DNA of 41,424 nt from an uncultured bacterium (GCA_964603025.1 CAZRTO010000003.1:1-41424); one strand, 5' to 3'; counted from the stretch's first letter, positions 4,011-25,547 are shown. The notes: generated by a model from the sequence alone, not told the origin. Translations and numbers: made by a program.

Positions 4011-4952
4011 CTATTCTCTGAATATGATCCGGCCTTTTATCGGCGCGGTGCTTTCATGTTCGAGCGGTCTTCTGATGCAAAAACTCAACTCTGTCCTCGA
4101 CCCGCTGATTTCTTTTGCCGTAATATGTATCACCCTTTCGCCGTCTTTTGAGGGCAGTTTAAGCGGTTCAAGTACAGTATCTATCTTCTTCGGGTCCCAC
4201 GAGCGAGATCCAAGGAATGTTCTTATTGCGATAGAGACCGCTTGTGCCGGATATGGGAACTTTGCCGGATGTAAGATGTTAAAACCGAACGAGCATTTCT
4301 TGTCAGGATGGTTTTCGCAGTGCTCAAAAACAGGCGGAGCTGGGAAAGACAGAACATTATTAAGATCTGCATCCTGCGGCAACGCCTGGCGGGCCAGATC
4401 GCCGAGGGTTTTTATTTGGCATCGAAAAAAAGCATTGTTGGAAGCTTCGTTTAAAAAGTACAGGTCGTTAGTCGTTCCGCCGACAAGGTTCGTATCTGCG
4501 GAAAAAGAACTTTCAATAAGAAATCTGGAAATAGTTACGAAACCTTGGAATGCTGATATGTTCTCTTCATCATCCAGGTTCATGCCTGCTAATGTCGGAG
4601 TAAGTGAAATCCAGGTCTTCTTGTTGTCCGAGATCGATGATTCAGTAATTCCTCTGAAAGGGTTTTCGTCAATATTAGGGAAGAGGATATTCGAATGCGC
4701 TCCTTTCAGCGAAGGCAAGTATCCGAATCTGATTAAGCCGTTATCGGTGGCGACATTAAAACACGTTACTTTTTCATCGTTCTGTTTGTAATCATGATAT
4801 AGGCGGCTATTTGGATCAAGGATCATGTCCGTGTGGTGCCTGAATTCAACTGTGTTAACGATCCGCGGTCTCTCCATCCCATGCCGCCACAGCGATATCC
4901 GCGTGATGCCGCTGGGGGGGATGGGGCTTGAGGTTGCGCCGTATATTTTCAT
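4011..4952 (-). CDS. hypothetical protein, paralog of the 220-aa protein upstream (shared PPSGIT..LWR.G motif) with an extra ~100-aa Cys-containing C-terminal region
   Basis: 313-aa ORF co-directional with the rSAM gene. Local similarity to the 5021..5683 product: IPPSGITRISLWRHG vs APPSGITKFRLWRTG; CFNVATD vs LFNIAID; AFQGFVTISRF vs AFDGSIRIARF; LGDLARQAL vs ISDLAHKAL. This supports the - strand frame over the antisense 276-aa ORF. Confidence 0.7.
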   Translation of the reverse strand: MKIYGATSSPIPPSGITRISLWRHGMERPRIVNTVEFRHHTDMILDPNSRLYHDYKQNDEKVTCFNVATDNGLIRFGYLPSLKGAHSNILFPNIDENPFRGITESSISDNKKTWISLTPTLAGMNLDDEENISAFQGFVTISRFLIESSFSADTNLVGGTTNDLYFLNEASNNAFFRCQIKTLGDLARQALPQDADLNNVLSFPAPPVFEHCENHPDKKCSFGFNILHPAKFPYPAQAVSIAIRTFLGSRSWDPKKIDTVLEPLKLPSKDGERVIHITAKEISGSRTELSFCIRRPLEHESTAPIKGRIIFRE

Positions 4953-5020: not shown

Positions 5021-5683
5021 TCAGCTTCCGGTGGCTGAGCCGTCACTACCCAGGAACTCTCCCGAAAGCGCCTTGTGGGCAAGGTCTGAGATCGTTACTA
5101 TGGGCCGGGGATCGTACGGCGGTTTTGTCAGCCGGCACAGATCAAATTCCATCGACGGATCCATCCTGGTCCATGCCGGGAGCCCGTTCTTTACAAAAAA
5201 GCGCGCGATACGTATAGAGCCGTCGAAAGCAGCGGCCTTGTAATCCTGTCCCAGAGAGTATATCAGCGAGTTCGTCGCGGACAACAGCATATTGACGGCT
5301 CCGGTCTTTGATATTTCCGTATTTCCGGTGAATCTATGCCCTGAATTGAAGGGCGCGTGTATATCGAGATGATTCGCGCGCTCGTTCTTTTTAAGCGTTA
5401 TCAGACCCAGGTATAATATGTCCCCGTCGATAGCGATGTTAAACAGAGTTTTTTTATGCCCAAGTTCCGCGATCGCCTTTCGCATCTCAAACAAGCCCGG
5501 CGAGCGGAATCCTTTGTCTCCCGTTCTCCATAACCTGAATTTTGTTATGCCTGAAGGCGGGGCGGCGATCAGTTCAGAAACTGCCCTGTCGCGTATCATT
5601 GCAAGAGAATTTACAACAGAGTGCAGTGCCGGGCCGCGGTTGAGGGGCGCGGCATGCGCCGGTATTAGCCTAATATTGGTCAA
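5021..5683 (-). CDS. hypothetical protein, first gene of the cassette, paralog of the 313-aa protein
   Basis: 220-aa ORF. TTG start (reverse complement of caa at 5681-5683) preceded by GAGGGG 8 nt upstream. Paralogy as described for 4011..4952. Confidence 0.7.
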   Translation of the reverse strand: MTNIRLIPAHAAPLNRGPALHSVVNSLAMIRDRAVSELIAAPPSGITKFRLWRTGDKGFRSPGLFEMRKAIAELGHKKTLFNIAIDGDILYLGLITLKKNERANHLDIHAPFNSGHRFTGNTEISKTGAVNMLLSATNSLIYSLGQDYKAAAFDGSIRIARFFVKNGLPAWTRMDPSMEFDLCRLTKPPYDPRPIVTISDLAHKALSGEFLGSDGSATGS

Positions 5684-20186: not shown

Positions 20187-20771
20187 ATGTGTGCCATGAA
20201 AGAGAAGAAAGTGATCTGGGTGACCGGGCCGGCAGGGGCGGGCAAGGACGAAGTTTGCCGCATGCTCGAAAAAGAGGGCTTTTATACCGTAGATGCCGAC
20301 AGAATAGGGCATAAGATACTCAATAAAAAAAAGAACGCGTTAAAACAAGTGTTCGGCGGCCCGGTGGTCAGGAACGGAAGGGTCGACCGCAAGGTCCTGG
20401 GAAAACGGGTTTTTGGCAGCAAGGCGGCTTTGAAAAAGTTGAACTCCATTGTCCACCCAGGGCTGATAATGGGCATCAGGTCCGCCGTGAGTTCCTGCGG
20501 CCGGGCAAGGATCGCCATAAACGCGGCCCTCTACAAAGAACTTTGCCCAGCTTTTCCGGATGCTCCGGTAGTCTCTGTGCTTGCTTCAAGGGCTCTCCGG
20601 GCCCAAAGGCTGGTCGTGTCCAGAAGGATGCCGCGGAACGAGGCAGAGGCCCTTATCGGAGCGCAGCAGAAGGACAGCTACTACAAGAGAGTGTCCGATT
20701 TTCTGATACTTAACGACGGTGGCTTGGGTCGGTTAAGGCGCGAGGTCAAGAAACTGCAGTTCATTTTCTGA
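20187..20771 (+). CDS. coaE: dephospho-CoA kinase
   Basis: P-loop VTGPAGAGK, DADRIGHKIL, VHPGL and overall CoaE pattern. The start could instead be the in-frame ATG at 20196. Confidence 0.8.
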   Translation: MCAMKEKKVIWVTGPAGAGKDEVCRMLEKEGFYTVDADRIGHKILNKKKNALKQVFGGPVVRNGRVDRKVLGKRVFGSKAALKKLNSIVHPGLIMGIRSAVSSCGRARIAINAALYKELCPAFPDAPVVSVLASRALRAQRLVVSRRMPRNEAEALIGAQQKDSYYKRVSDFLILNDGGLGRLRREVKKLQFIF

Positions 20772-22902
20772 TTATATGTCTTTCTATCCTGTACAGCTGT
20801 GTCTGTTTGTCCCCTTCGGCCGTAACTTCGAGGGTGTTCATTCCCGTTATGAGCGCCGTTCTTTCGGAGAACCAGGAAGCATTTCGGTCAAGCTTCAGTT
20901 TTTTTCTGTTGACAGATACGCTTTTTACCTCAGCGCTTGATATCCTGGCGGATGTCAGCACCGAAGAATGACCGGTATCGATCCGCTTGTCGGGCAGAGG
21001 GATGAGATCAAATACCGTGTGCGCGGAAACTTCCGCCGAAGGAGCGGCCGCCGAAAATTCGGCCTCTATGGAGCTTTGTATAAGAGGGGTTTTGGACAGC
21101 ATAAAAGCGACCTCTCCTCGGGTTATGTTCTTATTGGGCTCAAGATCGGTGCCGATAACAAAATCGAGCATGCCTTTTTTCTTTGCGTGATCGATATCCC
21201 TCACGGCCCAGTTGTCTATGGCTATATCCGGATAAGGCGACACGGACACGGGCTCCAGGCTCGCGCCGGAGAACCTTGATATGATCACCGCCGCTTCCGC
21301 TCTTGATACGTTCTTCGCGGGCCTGAACGTGCCGTCCGGATAACCCTTTACAAGCCCTTCTCTTGCGGCTATGGACGCGAATCCCGCAGCCCAGTAGGTG
21401 ACAGGCACGTCCTTGAAATCGCGTTTTGAGGCGTGAGCTTCCTTGTGGCCGAGGGCCTTGACCAGCAGAGTCACCAGCTCGGCGCGGACGATAGGCTGTT
21501 CCGGCTTGAAAGTACCGTCGGAGTAACCTCTCATTATCCCCAGATTATTAAGGTGAGCTATCGCGTCCTTGGCAAAATTGTCAGAACCCACATCCTCTAT
21601 GACAGGAGCCCTGAGTATGTGCAGCTGGGCCGTGGCTGTCCCTGTTTCAGGGGAAGACACCAGAGCTTCTATGCTGATCACGTTGGGGCCCTTTGCAAGA
21701 TGAGGCCAGAACACCTCGAATGAATTCGCGGTGCTAAGGGCCATGATATCCCTGCCGTTAACTTTAACCGCTTTTATCTCGTGCGCATTTTCTACGGATG
21801 CGGCTATGTCCACCGCTTCGTCCGTTACCGAGGACTTATCTTTGGGTGAGAGTATGTTCAGGACATAGTCGCCTTTTTTTGGAGCAAATTTAGGTTTTTC
21901 GGGTTCCGGAGCGTATGTAAGAGTGAAGATATGGCTGTTGTTGGAACTTACGGGATCGGATTTGTAAGCGTAATCGAACCGGAACTGTGACTGTTCAAGT
22001 CCTATGCCGTAACTCAGCCCTGCGTCTGGAGCGCTCTGGTCATAACCCAGCCTGAGAGCAAGGGTCTTGATCGGCTTCCATTCGAGCCCGGTCCTGAAGA
22101 CCATTCCGTTGGAATAAGAGAGAGTTTCCCGGGGCATTTCTATATCAACGGCCCCGACTATGTCGTGTCCCTGCAGGCGGTCCTCAAAAAGAGAGTCCTT
22201 GCCCGCCAGATGGAACTGTCCTCCCAGTTTTATCGCTCCTCCAAGCGTGTCCGAAGCGGATGATGCGCCGCTCCATGACAGGGGAGATGATAAGAGGTTT
22301 TGGTAGGCAAGGCCCGCCGAAAGCCACGGCAAGCTTTCCGGACAGTAGATCACGCCAATGTCCAAGTCCATCGCGGTGCCTCTTGCGGAGCTGTTGGGTC
22401 CTGATATGCTCTGGTTGTAGGTCTTCAGGCTGGCACCCAGGGACAGGTCTCCGGCGAACTCTATTCTTTTTGAATACGCCAGAACGAGCATGCTGTTCTC
22501 ATAGCCGATAGCTTCAGCCGACGGGTCGAGTATTATTCTTCCTGTAACGGAGGGCTCCCTGATCGTCGGGAACGAATTGCCGGCATTCAAGCCGACGAAC
22601 CCCAGTCCTAATGTCCCGAAACCCGTTTTTATGGATCCTGCTGCCGTGGTCTGGTTAACATCCCCGAGCAGATTGCTGGATGTGCCGGATATCTGCCAGT
22701 ATCTGGAAAAGTCCAGAGAAGCCGGGTTTGAAAATATGTTATTAGGGTCGGCTTTGTCGGCCAAGGTAGCCCGCCCCATGCCTATCTGGCGCGCGCCGAA
22801 GGAATACATTGACGGGTTCAGCACCGTGCCTGCCCGGGCGCATGCCGCAAGACCAGATAAGACCAGGCAGAATAAGAAAAACGTCTTGAGCGTATGTTTC
22901 AT
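20761..22902 (-). CDS. outer-membrane beta-barrel (PorV/FadL/TraF-like N-terminal motif) fused to an Ig-like domain, three SLH domains and a C-terminal Ig-like domain
   Basis: 713 aa. Signal peptide with a possible lipobox (LAAC). GARQIGMGRATLA...IFSNPASL motif. Alternating-polarity barrel region ending HIFTLTY (about aa 25-330). SLH repeats at about aa 434-606 (FKDVPVTYWAAGFASIAAREGLVKGYPDGTFRP...SRAEAAVIISRF and two more). Confidence 0.8.
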   Translation of the reverse strand: MKHTLKTFFLFCLVLSGLAACARAGTVLNPSMYSFGARQIGMGRATLADKADPNNIFSNPASLDFSRYWQISGTSSNLLGDVNQTTAAGSIKTGFGTLGLGFVGLNAGNSFPTIREPSVTGRIILDPSAEAIGYENSMLVLAYSKRIEFAGDLSLGASLKTYNQSISGPNSSARGTAMDLDIGVIYCPESLPWLSAGLAYQNLLSSPLSWSGASSASDTLGGAIKLGGQFHLAGKDSLFEDRLQGHDIVGAVDIEMPRETLSYSNGMVFRTGLEWKPIKTLALRLGYDQSAPDAGLSYGIGLEQSQFRFDYAYKSDPVSSNNSHIFTLTYAPEPEKPKFAPKKGDYVLNILSPKDKSSVTDEAVDIAASVENAHEIKAVKVNGRDIMALSTANSFEVFWPHLAKGPNVISIEALVSSPETGTATAQLHILRAPVIEDVGSDNFAKDAIAHLNNLGIMRGYSDGTFKPEQPIVRAELVTLLVKALGHKEAHASKRDFKDVPVTYWAAGFASIAAREGLVKGYPDGTFRPAKNVSRAEAAVIISRFSGASLEPVSVSPYPDIAIDNWAVRDIDHAKKKGMLDFVIGTDLEPNKNITRGEVAFMLSKTPLIQSSIEAEFSAAAPSAEVSAHTVFDLIPLPDKRIDTGHSSVLTSARISSAEVKSVSVNRKKLKLDRNASWFSERTALITGMNTLEVTAEGDKQTQLYRIERHIIRK

Positions 22903-23603
22903 CTCAGGGCCACCATCTTGCCTTTTCCTGCTACCGCTCCGTCAGCGACTATCAGGTAAATATACATGCCGTTGCCCACCGTTTGGCCTGATGCCGTTTT
23001 GCCGTCCCAGAATATCTCGTTATATCCGGCCAGACCTCCGGGGGTCCCGGACGCGAAGGGCAGTTTGACAAGATTGCCCCCGGCCGGATCGTATATGTTG
23101 ACGGAGATGTTCGCGTCCCTGGTCAGGTTGTAAGATATATATGTGCCGCTTGCCGGATCGAACGGATTAGGATAATTAAGCGGGTTGCCCTGCAGTGACA
23201 GGTCTTGAGCGCTTTCTACCTTAAGCCCTGTCACCTCGAACAAAGTGCCCTCACCGGAGTAGTCAGGTACGTATACCAGGATCGCATATATCCCGTCGGA
23301 CAGCGCGGACGTTTCTTTATAGAAGAGGCGGCATTCTGTCGAGGATATCACATCTGTTGTAAAGCCTGTTATAACCTCGTATGTCGCGTCCTTGCCGTAG
23401 GCCATCATGATCGAAGCGGCATCGAACGATGCTGAGCTTGATATCCTGACTTCCATTGAAGGCAGGGACGAAATGGTGTCGTTGTTCTGGATCCTGCGGC
23501 CGTTCATATACAGCTCAAAGTCCATAGTAGCGGCGTCGGCATGTGCGACGGCAGCCGCCAGCAATACCGGCACGGCCAATAAGACCCAAAAATACTTTTT
23601 CAC
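22899..23603 (-). CDS. secreted protein with C-terminal FlgD-Ig-like / T9SS type-A-sorting-like domain
   Basis: 234 aa. Signal peptide (LLAAAVAHADA). C-terminal NYPNPFDP..ISYNL....ISVNIYD.AG..V.......G.....WDGK...G..VGNGMYIYLI pattern. ATGA overlap with the downstream barrel-SLH gene. Confidence 0.75.
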   Translation of the reverse strand: MKKYFWVLLAVPVLLAAAVAHADAATMDFELYMNGRRIQNNDTISSLPSMEVRISSSASFDAASIMMAYGKDATYEVITGFTTDVISSTECRLFYKETSALSDGIYAILVYVPDYSGEGTLFEVTGLKVESAQDLSLQGNPLNYPNPFDPASGTYISYNLTRDANISVNIYDPAGGNLVKLPFASGTPGGLAGYNEIFWDGKTASGQTVGNGMYIYLIVADGAVAGKGKMVALR

Positions 23604-23613
23604 TCGTATCCTC

Positions 23614-25482
23614 CTAAAAAGTCAGGCTCACCGCAACGGTCTGGTTCCACTTTATGTCCGATGCGGTCAGATTGTCCATGATCTTGTCCATCGGGACCCC
23701 TTTGCTCTTTAAAGTGGCCACTGTCCCGGGGATGTCGGCAGCCGCAGTATAGGAAAGCTTCCAGTTGTCCCTGCCGGTATAAAACGTCCAGAATATGGGC
23801 TTTGCGATGTTGGTGTAGAGCAGATCAACGGAATAGAGACTGACCGCCGAAAGCGCGTCCACGCCCAGCGCGATCCCCGTTTTTGCTCCGGTTATTTCAG
23901 TCTGCAGTCCCAGGTCCAGCTTCGCCGGAAGAAAAGGGATCCCCTGAGGGAATGTGCTGTCTATCTTTTCCTGGACTTCCGCGTTATCGGCCGTCGGTTT
24001 TGATACTACCCCCACGCCGCCGCGCAGCCATATGGGGAGCGCGAATATCTGTGTTTCCGATCCGAGCCTCAGGACATTGATGTTGCTTATACCTACATCG
24101 ACACGTGTTCCGGTGGAATCTACAACCTGTATTATCATCGGGTTGGACCTTGTTTCGTAGTCAAGGGCTATGAGAAATGGCTTTGTAGTGTGCATGCCTA
24201 ACCGGATCTTTTTCGGGAGCTCGTACGTTTTGGACGGTTCCATGTATAACCCCTGTCCGTCCGGGAACACAAAATCCGTAGACCCGTACTCAAAAGGCGA
24301 CCAGTTGATCCCTTCGGCCGGGTCTATGTCGGGGTTCTCGGTGTTGAAGCGGTGGTTGGCATAATACGATAATCCTCTCCCTTTCATGTCGAGAACGGCT
24401 CCGCCCATGTTCTCGGCGACAAGGCTGAATGCCAGCCAGGGTTGGGGATCCCACATAAGTCCGAGATCCTGTCTGACGCAGGAGCCGGAATAGATCCCTG
24501 ACCATCTCGCGTCTGCCACTATCTCGCCCTCGGGCACCTGTATGACACTGGCTTTGTAGCCCGATGAGGTGCCGTAACGAGCGGGATCCGTTGTCCAAGC
24601 AGCCACATCAACAGGATCATCCGGATCGAAATTGGGAGTATAGAATATCAAATCCGATGCGGAAGTGCTCACTATCGCCCTTGCCGAGTTGTCAAATTCG
24701 GTACGTACGCTTATGGGTGTTAAGTTAAGTCCTGCCGAGAACTGGCCGTATTTAACAGCTCCGGTCATGGTCATGGAATTCTGCATCGATAAGCTGTTCC
24801 TGAAAGAAGTTTTTGCCGATGTCGGCAGTATTAGGTCCTGTGTCAGGAACCCGCTCCAGACCCTGTCCGAGGATGTGTAGGGGATCCCTCCGACGGTATA
24901 GGTCAGCTTGCCGTCGGTTATCGAGAGATTGTCCTGTGAGAAGTTGTTAAGGTCCGACGAGTATTTGGAAGTGACCGGTACACTTCCGGCCACGTCCCAG
25001 CTGGCATCAAGGGGATTGAGTGTTTTTACTCCGACAGCGAGCCAGTCGTTGAATTTGATGGCCTGATCGAACTCAAGCGATGAACCGGGATTGTTGTATC
25101 CGGCCAGCGTCGTTGCGGTCCTCTCTTTTTTTACCAGATCGGAAGGATCGTCCGTGAAATATATGCCGTTGGCAAATCCGCTCCCGGCTTCGAACTCGTT
25201 ATCCTCCACCTTGAAATTGTTGCTGAACGAAGAAACGAGTTTCCCCAATGGTATCTGGGCGTTGGCCTCCGCGGTCGGTATCCTGGTCAGTCCCGCGGGG
25301 TTCCACAGCGCGGAGGTCATGCCTCTGGCAAGCGAGCCGTAATAGATGCCTATGCCCGGGATCGGGTCTTCGTATATAGGCAGGCTCAGGGTGAGGTTGG
25401 AATATGGGAAATTGAAGTCGGCCACTGCCGGAGAGGCCGCCAGGATCGATGTTAAAAGCAAGAAAAACAGGATCTTTTTCAT
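23614..25482 (-). CDS. outer-membrane beta-barrel protein (PorV/FadL-like motif)
   Basis: 622 aa. Signal peptide (ASPAVADF). [17 protein letters not shown] motif. C-terminal beta-signal ending ...VAVSLTF (terminal Phe). Confidence 0.75.
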
Positions 25483-25494
25483 CAGGATGTCTGC

Positions 25495-25523
25495 ATTATA
25501 TATTCACTCCGGAGGGATGTCAA
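25495..25523 (-). promoter_or_regulatory. sigma70-consensus promoter for the outer-membrane operon: TTGACA-17 nt-TATAAT
   Basis: The - strand reads TTGACAtccctccggagtgaataTATAATgcagacatcctgATG. The -35 is the reverse complement of 25518-25523 and the -10 is the reverse complement of 25495-25500. Only 12 nt separate the -10 box from the ATG at 25482. Confidence 0.6.
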
Positions 25524-25532
25524 CGATTTTCT

Positions 25533-25541
25533 TGGTATAAT
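25533..25541 (+). promoter_or_regulatory. extended -10 element (TGgTATAAT) upstream of uvrB
   Basis: tggtataat at 25533-25541, 6 nt upstream of the GTG at 25548. Confidence 0.45.
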
Positions 25542-25547
25542 CTATCC

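Follow-up and report, generated by a model that had tools for sequence, protein, structure and literature searches.

A putative outer-membrane anchoring operon of Candidatus Margulisiibacteriota couples a type-A-like C-terminal domain to a PorV/PorQ-family barrel carrying SLH domains

The secretion system of type IX (T9SS), and with it the attachment of C-terminal domains (CTDs) to the barrels PorV and PorQ, is viewed as a speciality of the Bacteroidota or of the Fibrobacterota-Chlorobiota-Bacteroidota (FCB) group, and in the literature that we searched T9SS was restricted to these bacteria. Precedents for CTD docking are those of PorU on PorV, of PorZ on PorQ and of type-B CTD proteins on PorP or SprF. 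In PorP-PorE-PG1035 and SprF-SprB, a CTD protein goes together with its cognate barrel, which is FadL-like, and with a component that binds peptidoglycan (PMC9143113), and the type-B cargo genes of Bacteroidota are often linked to those of their cognate PorP/SprF shuttles (PMC12618676). Another FadL-family barrel, BamG, anchors the surface lipoprotein BamH within the β-barrel assembly machinery (BAM) complex of Bacteroidota (PMC12611786), and in the T9SS of F. johnsoniae the loops of PorV and the lumen of SprA together bind the CTD (PMC10994853). Here we describe a three-gene operon, with genes denoted A, B and C, on the minus strand of a 41,424-nucleotide stretch of DNA from an uncultured bacterium (GCA_964603025.1, CAZRTO010000003.1:1-41424; the whole stretch is hereafter called the window). 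The operon occupies positions 20761-25482 and encodes a large outer-membrane barrel (A), a small secreted protein with a type-A-like CTD (B) and a barrel joined to S-layer homology (SLH) domains (C).

We propose, tentatively and with a confidence slightly short of even, that this operon specifies an abundant outer-membrane complex of the CTD/FadL-family-barrel anchoring type in Margulisiibacteriota. The original prediction, made from the sequence of the window, had described a CTD cargo placed between two PorV/FadL-like barrels and coupled to them in a self-contained surface-display or tethering module. The family of C, the class of the tail of B, the coupling of the genes and the host agree with that description, whereas A is not detectably PorV-like in sequence outside its NPA region and B is not really a cargo. 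Like PorU-PorV and PorZ-PorQ of Porphyromonas gingivalis, the operon sets a PorV/PorQ-family barrel beside a protein with a constant, apparently retained type-A-like CTD, it has two FadL-like barrels per system, and the immunoglobulin-like (Ig-like) and CTD portion of B aligns with residues 943-1139 of PorU. It differs from them in lacking a sortase domain and PorZ-like propellers, in the fusion of a barrel to SLH domains, in its Margulisiibacteriota host, in having one CTD protein for two barrels, and in the lack of nearby SprA or PorKLMN genes. With PorE-PorP-PG1035 and SprF-SprB it would share a surface CTD protein, a dedicated FadL-like barrel and a peptidoglycan binder, and in both cases the cargo and barrel genes are linked. 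Unlike in those systems, the CTD is of the type-A/FlgD_ig-like rather than the type-B kind, the barrel is PorV/PorQ-like rather than PorP, and the barrel itself carries the SLH domains that would bind peptidoglycan, a task left there to a separate protein of the OmpA_C type, PorE.

Protein C provides the link to the PorV/PorQ family. Its 713 residues (gene C, 20761..22902, minus strand) comprise a signal peptide, a PorV/PorQ-type barrel, an Ig-like domain, three SLH domains and a C-terminal Ig-like domain, and close relatives carry one further Ig-like domain. The β-barrel (residues ~26-331; 21910..22827, minus strand) contains the NPA motif FSNPASL, in which N59 and P60 are invariant. Residues 34-330 of C match the NF033709 PorV_fam model with 88.5 bits against a cutoff of 90, spanning model positions 10-324 of 326; the orthologue in locus L003, to which NCBI gives the name PorV/PorQ family protein, passes with 97.7 bits, and all 13 of 13 C family members match this model (best E 1e-28). 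In addition, the profile of the C family finds the solved PorV of F. johnsoniae (6h3i_F) at E 3.6e-6. The narrower equivalog models were not satisfied, PorQ being a secondary NCBIfam match (42 bits versus 220) and T9SS_OM_PorV scoring 15 bits versus 250. C thus appears to be a member of PorV/PorQ at the family level, with a C-terminal SLH extension. A lipobox-like LAAC had also raised the possibility of a lipoprotein, which we rejected: its Cys is not conserved among orthologues.

A Pro/Lys linker follows the barrel of C and leads into the first Ig-like domain (Glucodextran_B-type, residues 348-426; 21625..21861, minus strand; Pfam PF09136, 34.4 bits), which separates the barrel from the three SLH domains (residues ~437-620; 21043..21594, minus strand). 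The latter score 95.4 bits with the Pfam SLH model over three stretches and match the SLH of Sap in the PDB at E 1e-22. Their TRAE-type motifs read VRAE, SRAE and TRGE, and the residues R473/E475, R534/E536 and R595/E597 are conserved. The predicted fusion of a PorV-like barrel to SLH domains was therefore borne out by the NF033709, 6h3i_F and Pfam matches. Such barrels have their termini in the periplasm, and SLH domains attach to wall polymers; from what is known of SLH and OmpM proteins, C would thus staple an outer-membrane barrel to the peptidoglycan layer. Under the operational definition of OmpM as SLH plus an outer-membrane β-barrel (Witwinowski et al.), C qualifies as such a protein. 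As in the OmpM/Slp/SlpA tethers, C joins both parts in one chain in a Terrabacteria-side diderm, with conserved TRAE-type motifs. It departs from them in its order, with an N-terminal barrel and three C-terminal SLH domains against one N-terminal SLH, a coiled coil and a C-terminal porin, and also in the PorV/FadL type of its barrel and in its operon coupling to a CTD protein. The por_somb model matches C only in the SLH region (22 bits versus a cutoff of 100), and the canonical OmpM architecture was not found in C.

Protein B (gene B, 22899..23603, minus strand, GTG start, 234 residues) is composed of a Sec signal peptide (residues ~1-24; N-terminal sequence MKKYFWVLLAVPVLLAAAVAHADA), an Ig-like β-sandwich (~27-130) and a C-terminal seven-stranded β-sandwich, the CTD (~139-234; 22902..23189, minus strand). 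The AlphaFold2 (AF2) model of B has a mean predicted local distance difference test (pLDDT) score of 89.5, and in it the CTD strands are placed at 142-144, 154-160, 166-171, 177-183, 193-199, 212-220 and 223-232; a seven-stranded C-terminal sandwich on a Sec-exported protein, as modelled here, is characteristic of type-A CTDs. Along the CTD run the motifs NYPNPF ... IYD..G ... GYNE.FWDG ... GNGMYIY ... GKGKMVALR, so that the C-terminal ~95 residues fit the pattern that had been noted in the sequence, and its positions P145-N146-P147-F148, D172, G175, W199, G201, G210-N211-G212, Y214 and G228-K229 show no variation among 22 homologues. Type-A CTDs possess a near-C-terminal Lys that is almost invariant and functionally important (PMC10994853), and B has this residue (K229) together with the PNPF and G.Y motifs of the class.

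The best PDB match of B, by both sequence profile (E 3e-6) and fold (E 1e-8), is the T9SS sortase PorU (6za2), over the Ig and CTD portion already mentioned, and the NCBIfam model of the PorU C-terminus matches B at E 3e-11. When the homologues of B were searched with this model and with those for type-A CTDs (TIGR04183/PF18962 and the FlgD_ig subclass, PF13860), the PorU C-terminus was found in 22/22 (best 3e-17), TIGR04183 in 21/22 (best E 3.4e-7) and FlgD_ig in 22/22 (best 6e-11); a long B orthologue in locus L005 reached 23.3 bits on TIGR04183, at or above the cutoff. The tail of B therefore appears to belong, at the family level, to the T9SS type-A/FlgD_ig class of CTDs, with the retained CTD of PorU as its nearest relative, and this part of the original prediction holds at that level. 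B was also considered as a FlgD and rejected, as only the Ig domain matches (E 0.002-0.15), no FlgD N-terminal domain is present and the gene lies in an operon of outer-membrane proteins.

Protein A (gene A, 23614..25482, minus strand, ATG start, 622 residues) has a signal peptide with cleavage predicted after AVA21. Its WNPAGL sequence at residues 60-65 is an NPA motif of the FadL type, with conservation of 90% or more at W60, N61, P62 and A63, and its C-terminus, ...AVSLTF, ends in the β-signal residue F622, invariant in 20 homologues. The AF2 model (pLDDT 83.5) is nearly all β, and in Foldseek searches its best matches were FadL, TodX, CymD and BamG, with E values of 1.6e-9 to 4e-7. The same matches had TM-scores of 0.28-0.32 (query) and 0.40-0.47 (target) and root mean square deviations of 14-21 Å, and 22-strand TonB-dependent barrels also scored as matches. 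Besides these structural matches, A shares with FadL, TodX and BamG a terminal aromatic β-signal and the N-terminal G.G...NPAxL hatch motif, which is common to A, C and FadL. Unlike them, A is ~200 residues longer and has no family match in Pfam or NCBIfam, so that membership in the FadL/TodX family (PF03349) was not found by hidden Markov model (HMM) searches, and none of 20 members of the A family matched a Pfam or NCBIfam FadL or PorV model at E <= 0.1. A PDB sequence search with A returned no match.

The possibility that A is a PorV paralogue of C was rejected, since alignment of the A and C profiles with hhalign gave 87.5% probability over 66 columns that cover only the signal peptide and the NPA region, and the exhaustive HMM search bridged to no other family. 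That search, of 1.84 billion protein representatives, returned 66 sequences, all of them members of the A family or fragments of such members, and so describes a closed family of ~66 representatives confined to one phylum. Of the earlier view of A as PorV/FadL-like, the FadL half is carried by the fold matches to FadL, TodX and BamG, at low TM-scores (0.31/0.45), whereas beyond the ~40-residue NPA region the sequence is not PorV-like. We accept A as a FadL-superfamily-like outer-membrane barrel rather than a PorV homologue, and the A proteins appear to constitute a new, uncharacterised and phylum-restricted family of large outer-membrane proteins.

The arrangement of the three genes, their sizes, the 10-nt gap and the ATGA overlap are exactly those of the original prediction. 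As read from the sequence, 10 nt separate A from B, and the perfect Shine-Dalgarno sequence AGGAGG of B (23610..23615, minus strand), 6 nt 5' of its GTG, overlaps the TAG stop of A; the stop of B and the start of C overlap as ATGA. A sigma-70-type promoter, TTGACA-17 nt-TATAAT (25495..25523, minus strand), matches the consensus at 12/12 positions and ends 12 nt upstream of the ATG of A. A near-consensus promoter (10-12 of 12) abuts the start codon of A in 11/13 related loci (among them L003, L005, L008, L009, L011, L012, L013, L017 and L018); its -35 hexamer is TTGACA with one exception (TTGATA), and 7-12 nt lie between the end of the -10 hexamer and the ATG. These observations agree with the claims of translational coupling and of a consensus promoter, and A, B and C appear to be co-transcribed from this conserved promoter and are translationally coupled. 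No convincing intrinsic terminator was seen 3' of C on the minus strand, where the 3' end of C overlaps the convergent coaE by 11 nt.

With the -10 hexamer so near to the ATG of A, a leaderless or near-leaderless mRNA is expected. Gene A has no upstream Shine-Dalgarno sequence, in contrast to gene B with its perfect AGGAGG, and the arrangement implies, as far as sequence can tell, that the mRNA of A is leaderless or nearly so (leader ~5 nt) throughout the phylum. Judging from its promoter, the operon probably ranks with the most strongly expressed envelope operons of the phylum. The earlier suggestion of very high expression is to that extent strengthened, the conserved near-consensus promoter backing strong expression, although its use in this phylum is something that we infer. 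Two points of annotation concern the same region. Automatic and public gene calls start A at the GTG of codon 20 (603 aa), losing 25426-25482 (minus strand); the 622-residue reading is the correct one because the shorter call deletes a conserved signal peptide. On the opposite strand, the uvrB ORF (open reading frame) as listed (689 aa; overlap 25449-25545, plus strand) runs over the 5' end and promoter of A, while uvrB orthologues have 657-662 aa, which suggests that the true start of uvrB is probably ~30 codons downstream.

The operon is conserved. In a phyletic scan with one genome per GTDB species, 13 loci encode A, labelled Margulisiibacteriota, WOR-1, Saganbacteria, 'uncultured bacterium' (two metagenome-assembled genomes, MAGs) and 'Omnitrophota' (one). 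The gene order is A-B-C wherever a related locus extends far enough, and the uvrB/coaE/comEC neighbourhood is constant in the loci with gene tables that were examined. The three ORFs are therefore not a product of chance, as their homologues stand in the same order in at least 13 species-level genomes, and the trio is conserved across the phylum. The locus with the Omnitrophota label (L009, DATJPS010000008.1) holds the full A-B-C trio, with a promoter and gene arrangement like that of L008; its label (Candidatus Omnitrophota) probably stems from an error of binning or labelling and is not a sign of wider distribution. All named members of the A, B and C families come from Candidatus Margulisiibacteriota MAGs, except for one distant C-like protein from an 'Acidobacteriia' MAG. 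The host is thus a non-Bacteroidota diderm of the Margulisiibacteriota, and the suspicion that a barrel with SLH domains points outside the Bacteroidota was correct. Margulisbacteria are a sister phylum of Cyanobacteria.

Within this conserved frame, gene B varies. In close relatives of the window B has 234-240 aa and in two lineages ~300-340 aa, while in most lineages it has 885-987 aa, with Metallophos, Pur_ac_phosph_N and several Big domains ahead of the same tail. Residues 29-234 of B align at 36-38% identity with the final ~210 residues of orthologues of 884 and 974 aa. The passenger of the long form is a ~650-residue metallophosphatase plus Ig repeats, present in most lineages and absent here. 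The tail being shared by short and long B, the Ig-CTD module is the conserved element and the passenger is optional; B of this genome would be an anchor without cargo. This runs against the original prediction, which took B for a CTD cargo: B is here a passenger-less Ig-CTD module, and it is in most relatives that a ~900-residue metallophosphatase bears the same tail.

Pairs of a CTD protein and a PorV-like barrel also occur apart from gene A. In a Margulisiibacteriota genome (GCA_041658645.1; L019, 4037-6168), the gene for a TIG-repeat protein whose tail resembles a CTD (P0118) shares 4 nt with that for a free-standing PorV/PorQ-like barrel of 342 aa (PorV_fam 72 bits, PorVQ2 58 bits), and next comes a 270-aa protein without a family match. 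On a 659-kb contig (L021, 6247-9902), an Ig-CTD protein scoring 128.6 bits with the B profile is joined by a 4-nt overlap to a PorV-SLH protein. A third pair, from an 'Acidobacteriia'/Terriglobia MAG (L022, 1-3092), has a CTD-like-tailed protein and PorV-SLH with the same 4-nt overlap; its tail is diverged and gives no match to the B profile. Mis-binning is possible for this taxon label, SLH proteins being unusual in Acidobacteriia/Terriglobia. No A-type barrel was found near the L021 and L022 pairs in the flanking sequence retrieved, which reaches up to 8 kb if the contigs are long enough. A two-gene core of CTD protein and PorV-like barrel with a 4-nt overlap thus recurs independently. The idea that A is a general translocon of CTD proteins is weakened by the three pairs without it.

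How might such a complex be assembled? According to the anchoring model that we favour, B would be exported by Sec with its CTD retained, and the CTD may then dock non-covalently on the extracellular loops of the barrel of C, by analogy with the docking precedents in Bacteroidota. The SLH domains of C, predicted to be periplasmic, would bind a pyruvylated cell-wall polymer and thereby fix the complex to the peptidoglycan; binding to pyruvylated secondary cell-wall polymer, which depends on CsaB, or to polyamine-modified peptidoglycan is a mark of OmpM-type tethers. C would in this way combine in one chain the roles of PorP and PorE, and A could be a partner barrel that offers a second docking site or a channel. 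B would cross the outer membrane either via an unrecognised translocon encoded elsewhere in the genome or via A.

Several observations weigh against this model. FlgD_ig-type sandwiches are found in non-T9SS contexts too, and B alone stays below the cutoffs of TIGR04183 (15.9 bits versus 23) and of FlgD_ig (23.3 bits versus 27). A, which the model includes as a partner, is absent from the L019, L021 and L022 modules. Moreover, SprA supplies more than half of the buried surface when a CTD binds PorV inside the SprA pore (PMC10994853), and no SprA-like gene was seen in the ~61 kb around the operon. B, having no known translocon, might never be at the surface.

The lack of a translocon near the operon bears directly on a more conventional explanation, which we consider unlikely, namely that this is an ordinary T9SS cargo/shuttle locus. 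A full or divergent T9SS, comprising a SprA/Sov translocon, a motor and ring of the PorKLMN type and the sortase PorU, would then be encoded elsewhere in the genome, with A and C as lineage-specific shuttle or anchor barrels and B as a substrate. Elsewhere, both this class of CTD and the PorV/PorQ family go with T9SS, in which export of type-A CTD proteins depends on the SprA/Sov translocon and the PorLM/GldLM motor, and the frequent linkage of type-B cargo genes to cognate PorP/SprF shuttles in Bacteroidota (PMC12618676) would give such a locus a parallel. To extend the view beyond the window we read its flanks on the 148-kb metagenomic contig to which it belongs (ENA ERZ16299754, NODE_113), ~10 kb on each side, so that the part of the genome inspected amounts to ~61 kb, a span that leaves room for this explanation. 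None of the T9SS core genes (sprA/sov, porK/L/M/N, porU, porZ) was found in the window or in the ~10 kb read on either side of it, in keeping with the earlier remark that no other T9SS gene is visible in 41 kb, and no further ORF of the window has an NYPNPF-type tail or an NPA-barrel motif. The T9SS core Pfam families were likewise missing from the precomputed annotations of ~20 related loci (10-20 kb each), which is absence of evidence only. Against a hidden T9SS also stands the literature that we searched, which restricts this system to Bacteroidota/FCB; searches on PorV with SLH, on FlgD_ig in candidate phyla and on T9SS in Margulisbacteria found nothing relevant, and no paper ties T9SS to Margulisbacteria.

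A second explanation starts from A and from the long forms of B, and sees in the operon a unit for nutrient acquisition. A hydrophobic or amphipathic substrate would pass through A, a true channel of the FadL type; long B would be a surface phosphoesterase that produces this substrate, and C the anchor of the enzyme. In the lineage of the window the enzyme part would have been lost. The Metallophos and Pur_ac_phosph_N domains of long B speak for such a role, as do the folds closest to A, which are those of the transporters FadL, TodX and CymD, and its NPA hatch motif, which is the one mutated in the FadL N33A and P34A structures among the Foldseek matches. However, A fails the FadL Pfam model and its TM-scores are low, and in lineages with short B both A and C remain intact behind the same strong promoter, which implies that the complex functions without the enzyme. 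We therefore hold an uptake unit to be quite improbable, although it is partly compatible with the anchoring model.

Equally improbable, in our view, is a purely periplasmic structural assembly, in which B would bind C on its periplasmic Ig/SLH arm, or the barrels on their periplasmic side, and would space or regulate an extra tether from outer membrane to peptidoglycan beside OmpM: it would suit a small, passenger-less B with no translocon identified and a C whose SLH arm must be periplasmic and which is a tether by the operational definition of OmpM, but the long B orthologues resemble secreted or surface enzymes, B is most closely related to a CTD whose binding to PorV takes place on the cell surface, and a canonical OmpM-type protein is already present in the phylum. 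The gene for the latter lies in L019 (11683-12927) and encodes a protein with SLH at its N-terminus, then a coiled-coil-like stretch, then a barrel whose C-terminus reads ...SAVSF, from which it follows that C is not the sole SLH tether of the phylum.

The remaining genes of the window are housekeeping genes, including uvrB, dapA, recG, comEA/EC, coaE, cysS, serS, prfA and that of RNase J, and a polysaccharide cluster lies at the right end; neither Rfam elements nor tRNAs were found in the window. Two adjacent minus-strand genes, at 4011-4952 (313 aa) and 5021-5683 (220 aa), have no Pfam match and are also found in the related contig L024. An isolated FliJ-like ORF (PF02050; 32225-32713, plus strand) stands directly 3' of a hydantoinase-family gene, with no other flagellar genes nearby. 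Past the right end of the window, at ~7.5 kb from it, L023 (17906-19585) encodes a large serine recombinase (Resolvase, Recombinase, Zn_ribbon_recom) followed by an HTH gene, and an integrated element may have its edge at this site.

Returning to the anchoring model, one may speculate further on the origin of the CTD/PorV-family pair. According to this speculation, which we regard as rather doubtful, Margulisiibacteriota have neither SprA nor PorKLMN, and the pair is an autonomous, ancient display system: the FadL-type barrels themselves (C, aided in this trio by A) would take the Sec-exported CTD protein, pass it to the surface or hold it there, and fix it to the peptidoglycan via its SLH domains. 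The PorV-CTD module would then be older than, or independent of, the translocon and motor of T9SS, and common to Terrabacteria-side and FCB diderms.

What appears to be new here is the fusion of SLH domains to a PorV-family barrel, the reversed order of an OmpM-like protein and the non-FCB host. In this operon a type-A-like CTD and a PorV/PorQ-family barrel are hard-wired to one another outside the FCB group, and the barrel is fused to a wall anchor of the Terrabacteria type. If the core T9SS is truly absent, the operon would represent a simpler ancestor or an offshoot of the attachment step of T9SS, and would raise the question of how a CTD protein crosses the outer membrane without SprA. In either case, C would represent a second architecture of SLH-mediated tethering between the outer membrane and peptidoglycan, with the barrel first and the SLH domains last, and this bears on models of envelope evolution that count every SLH-plus-barrel protein as OmpM.

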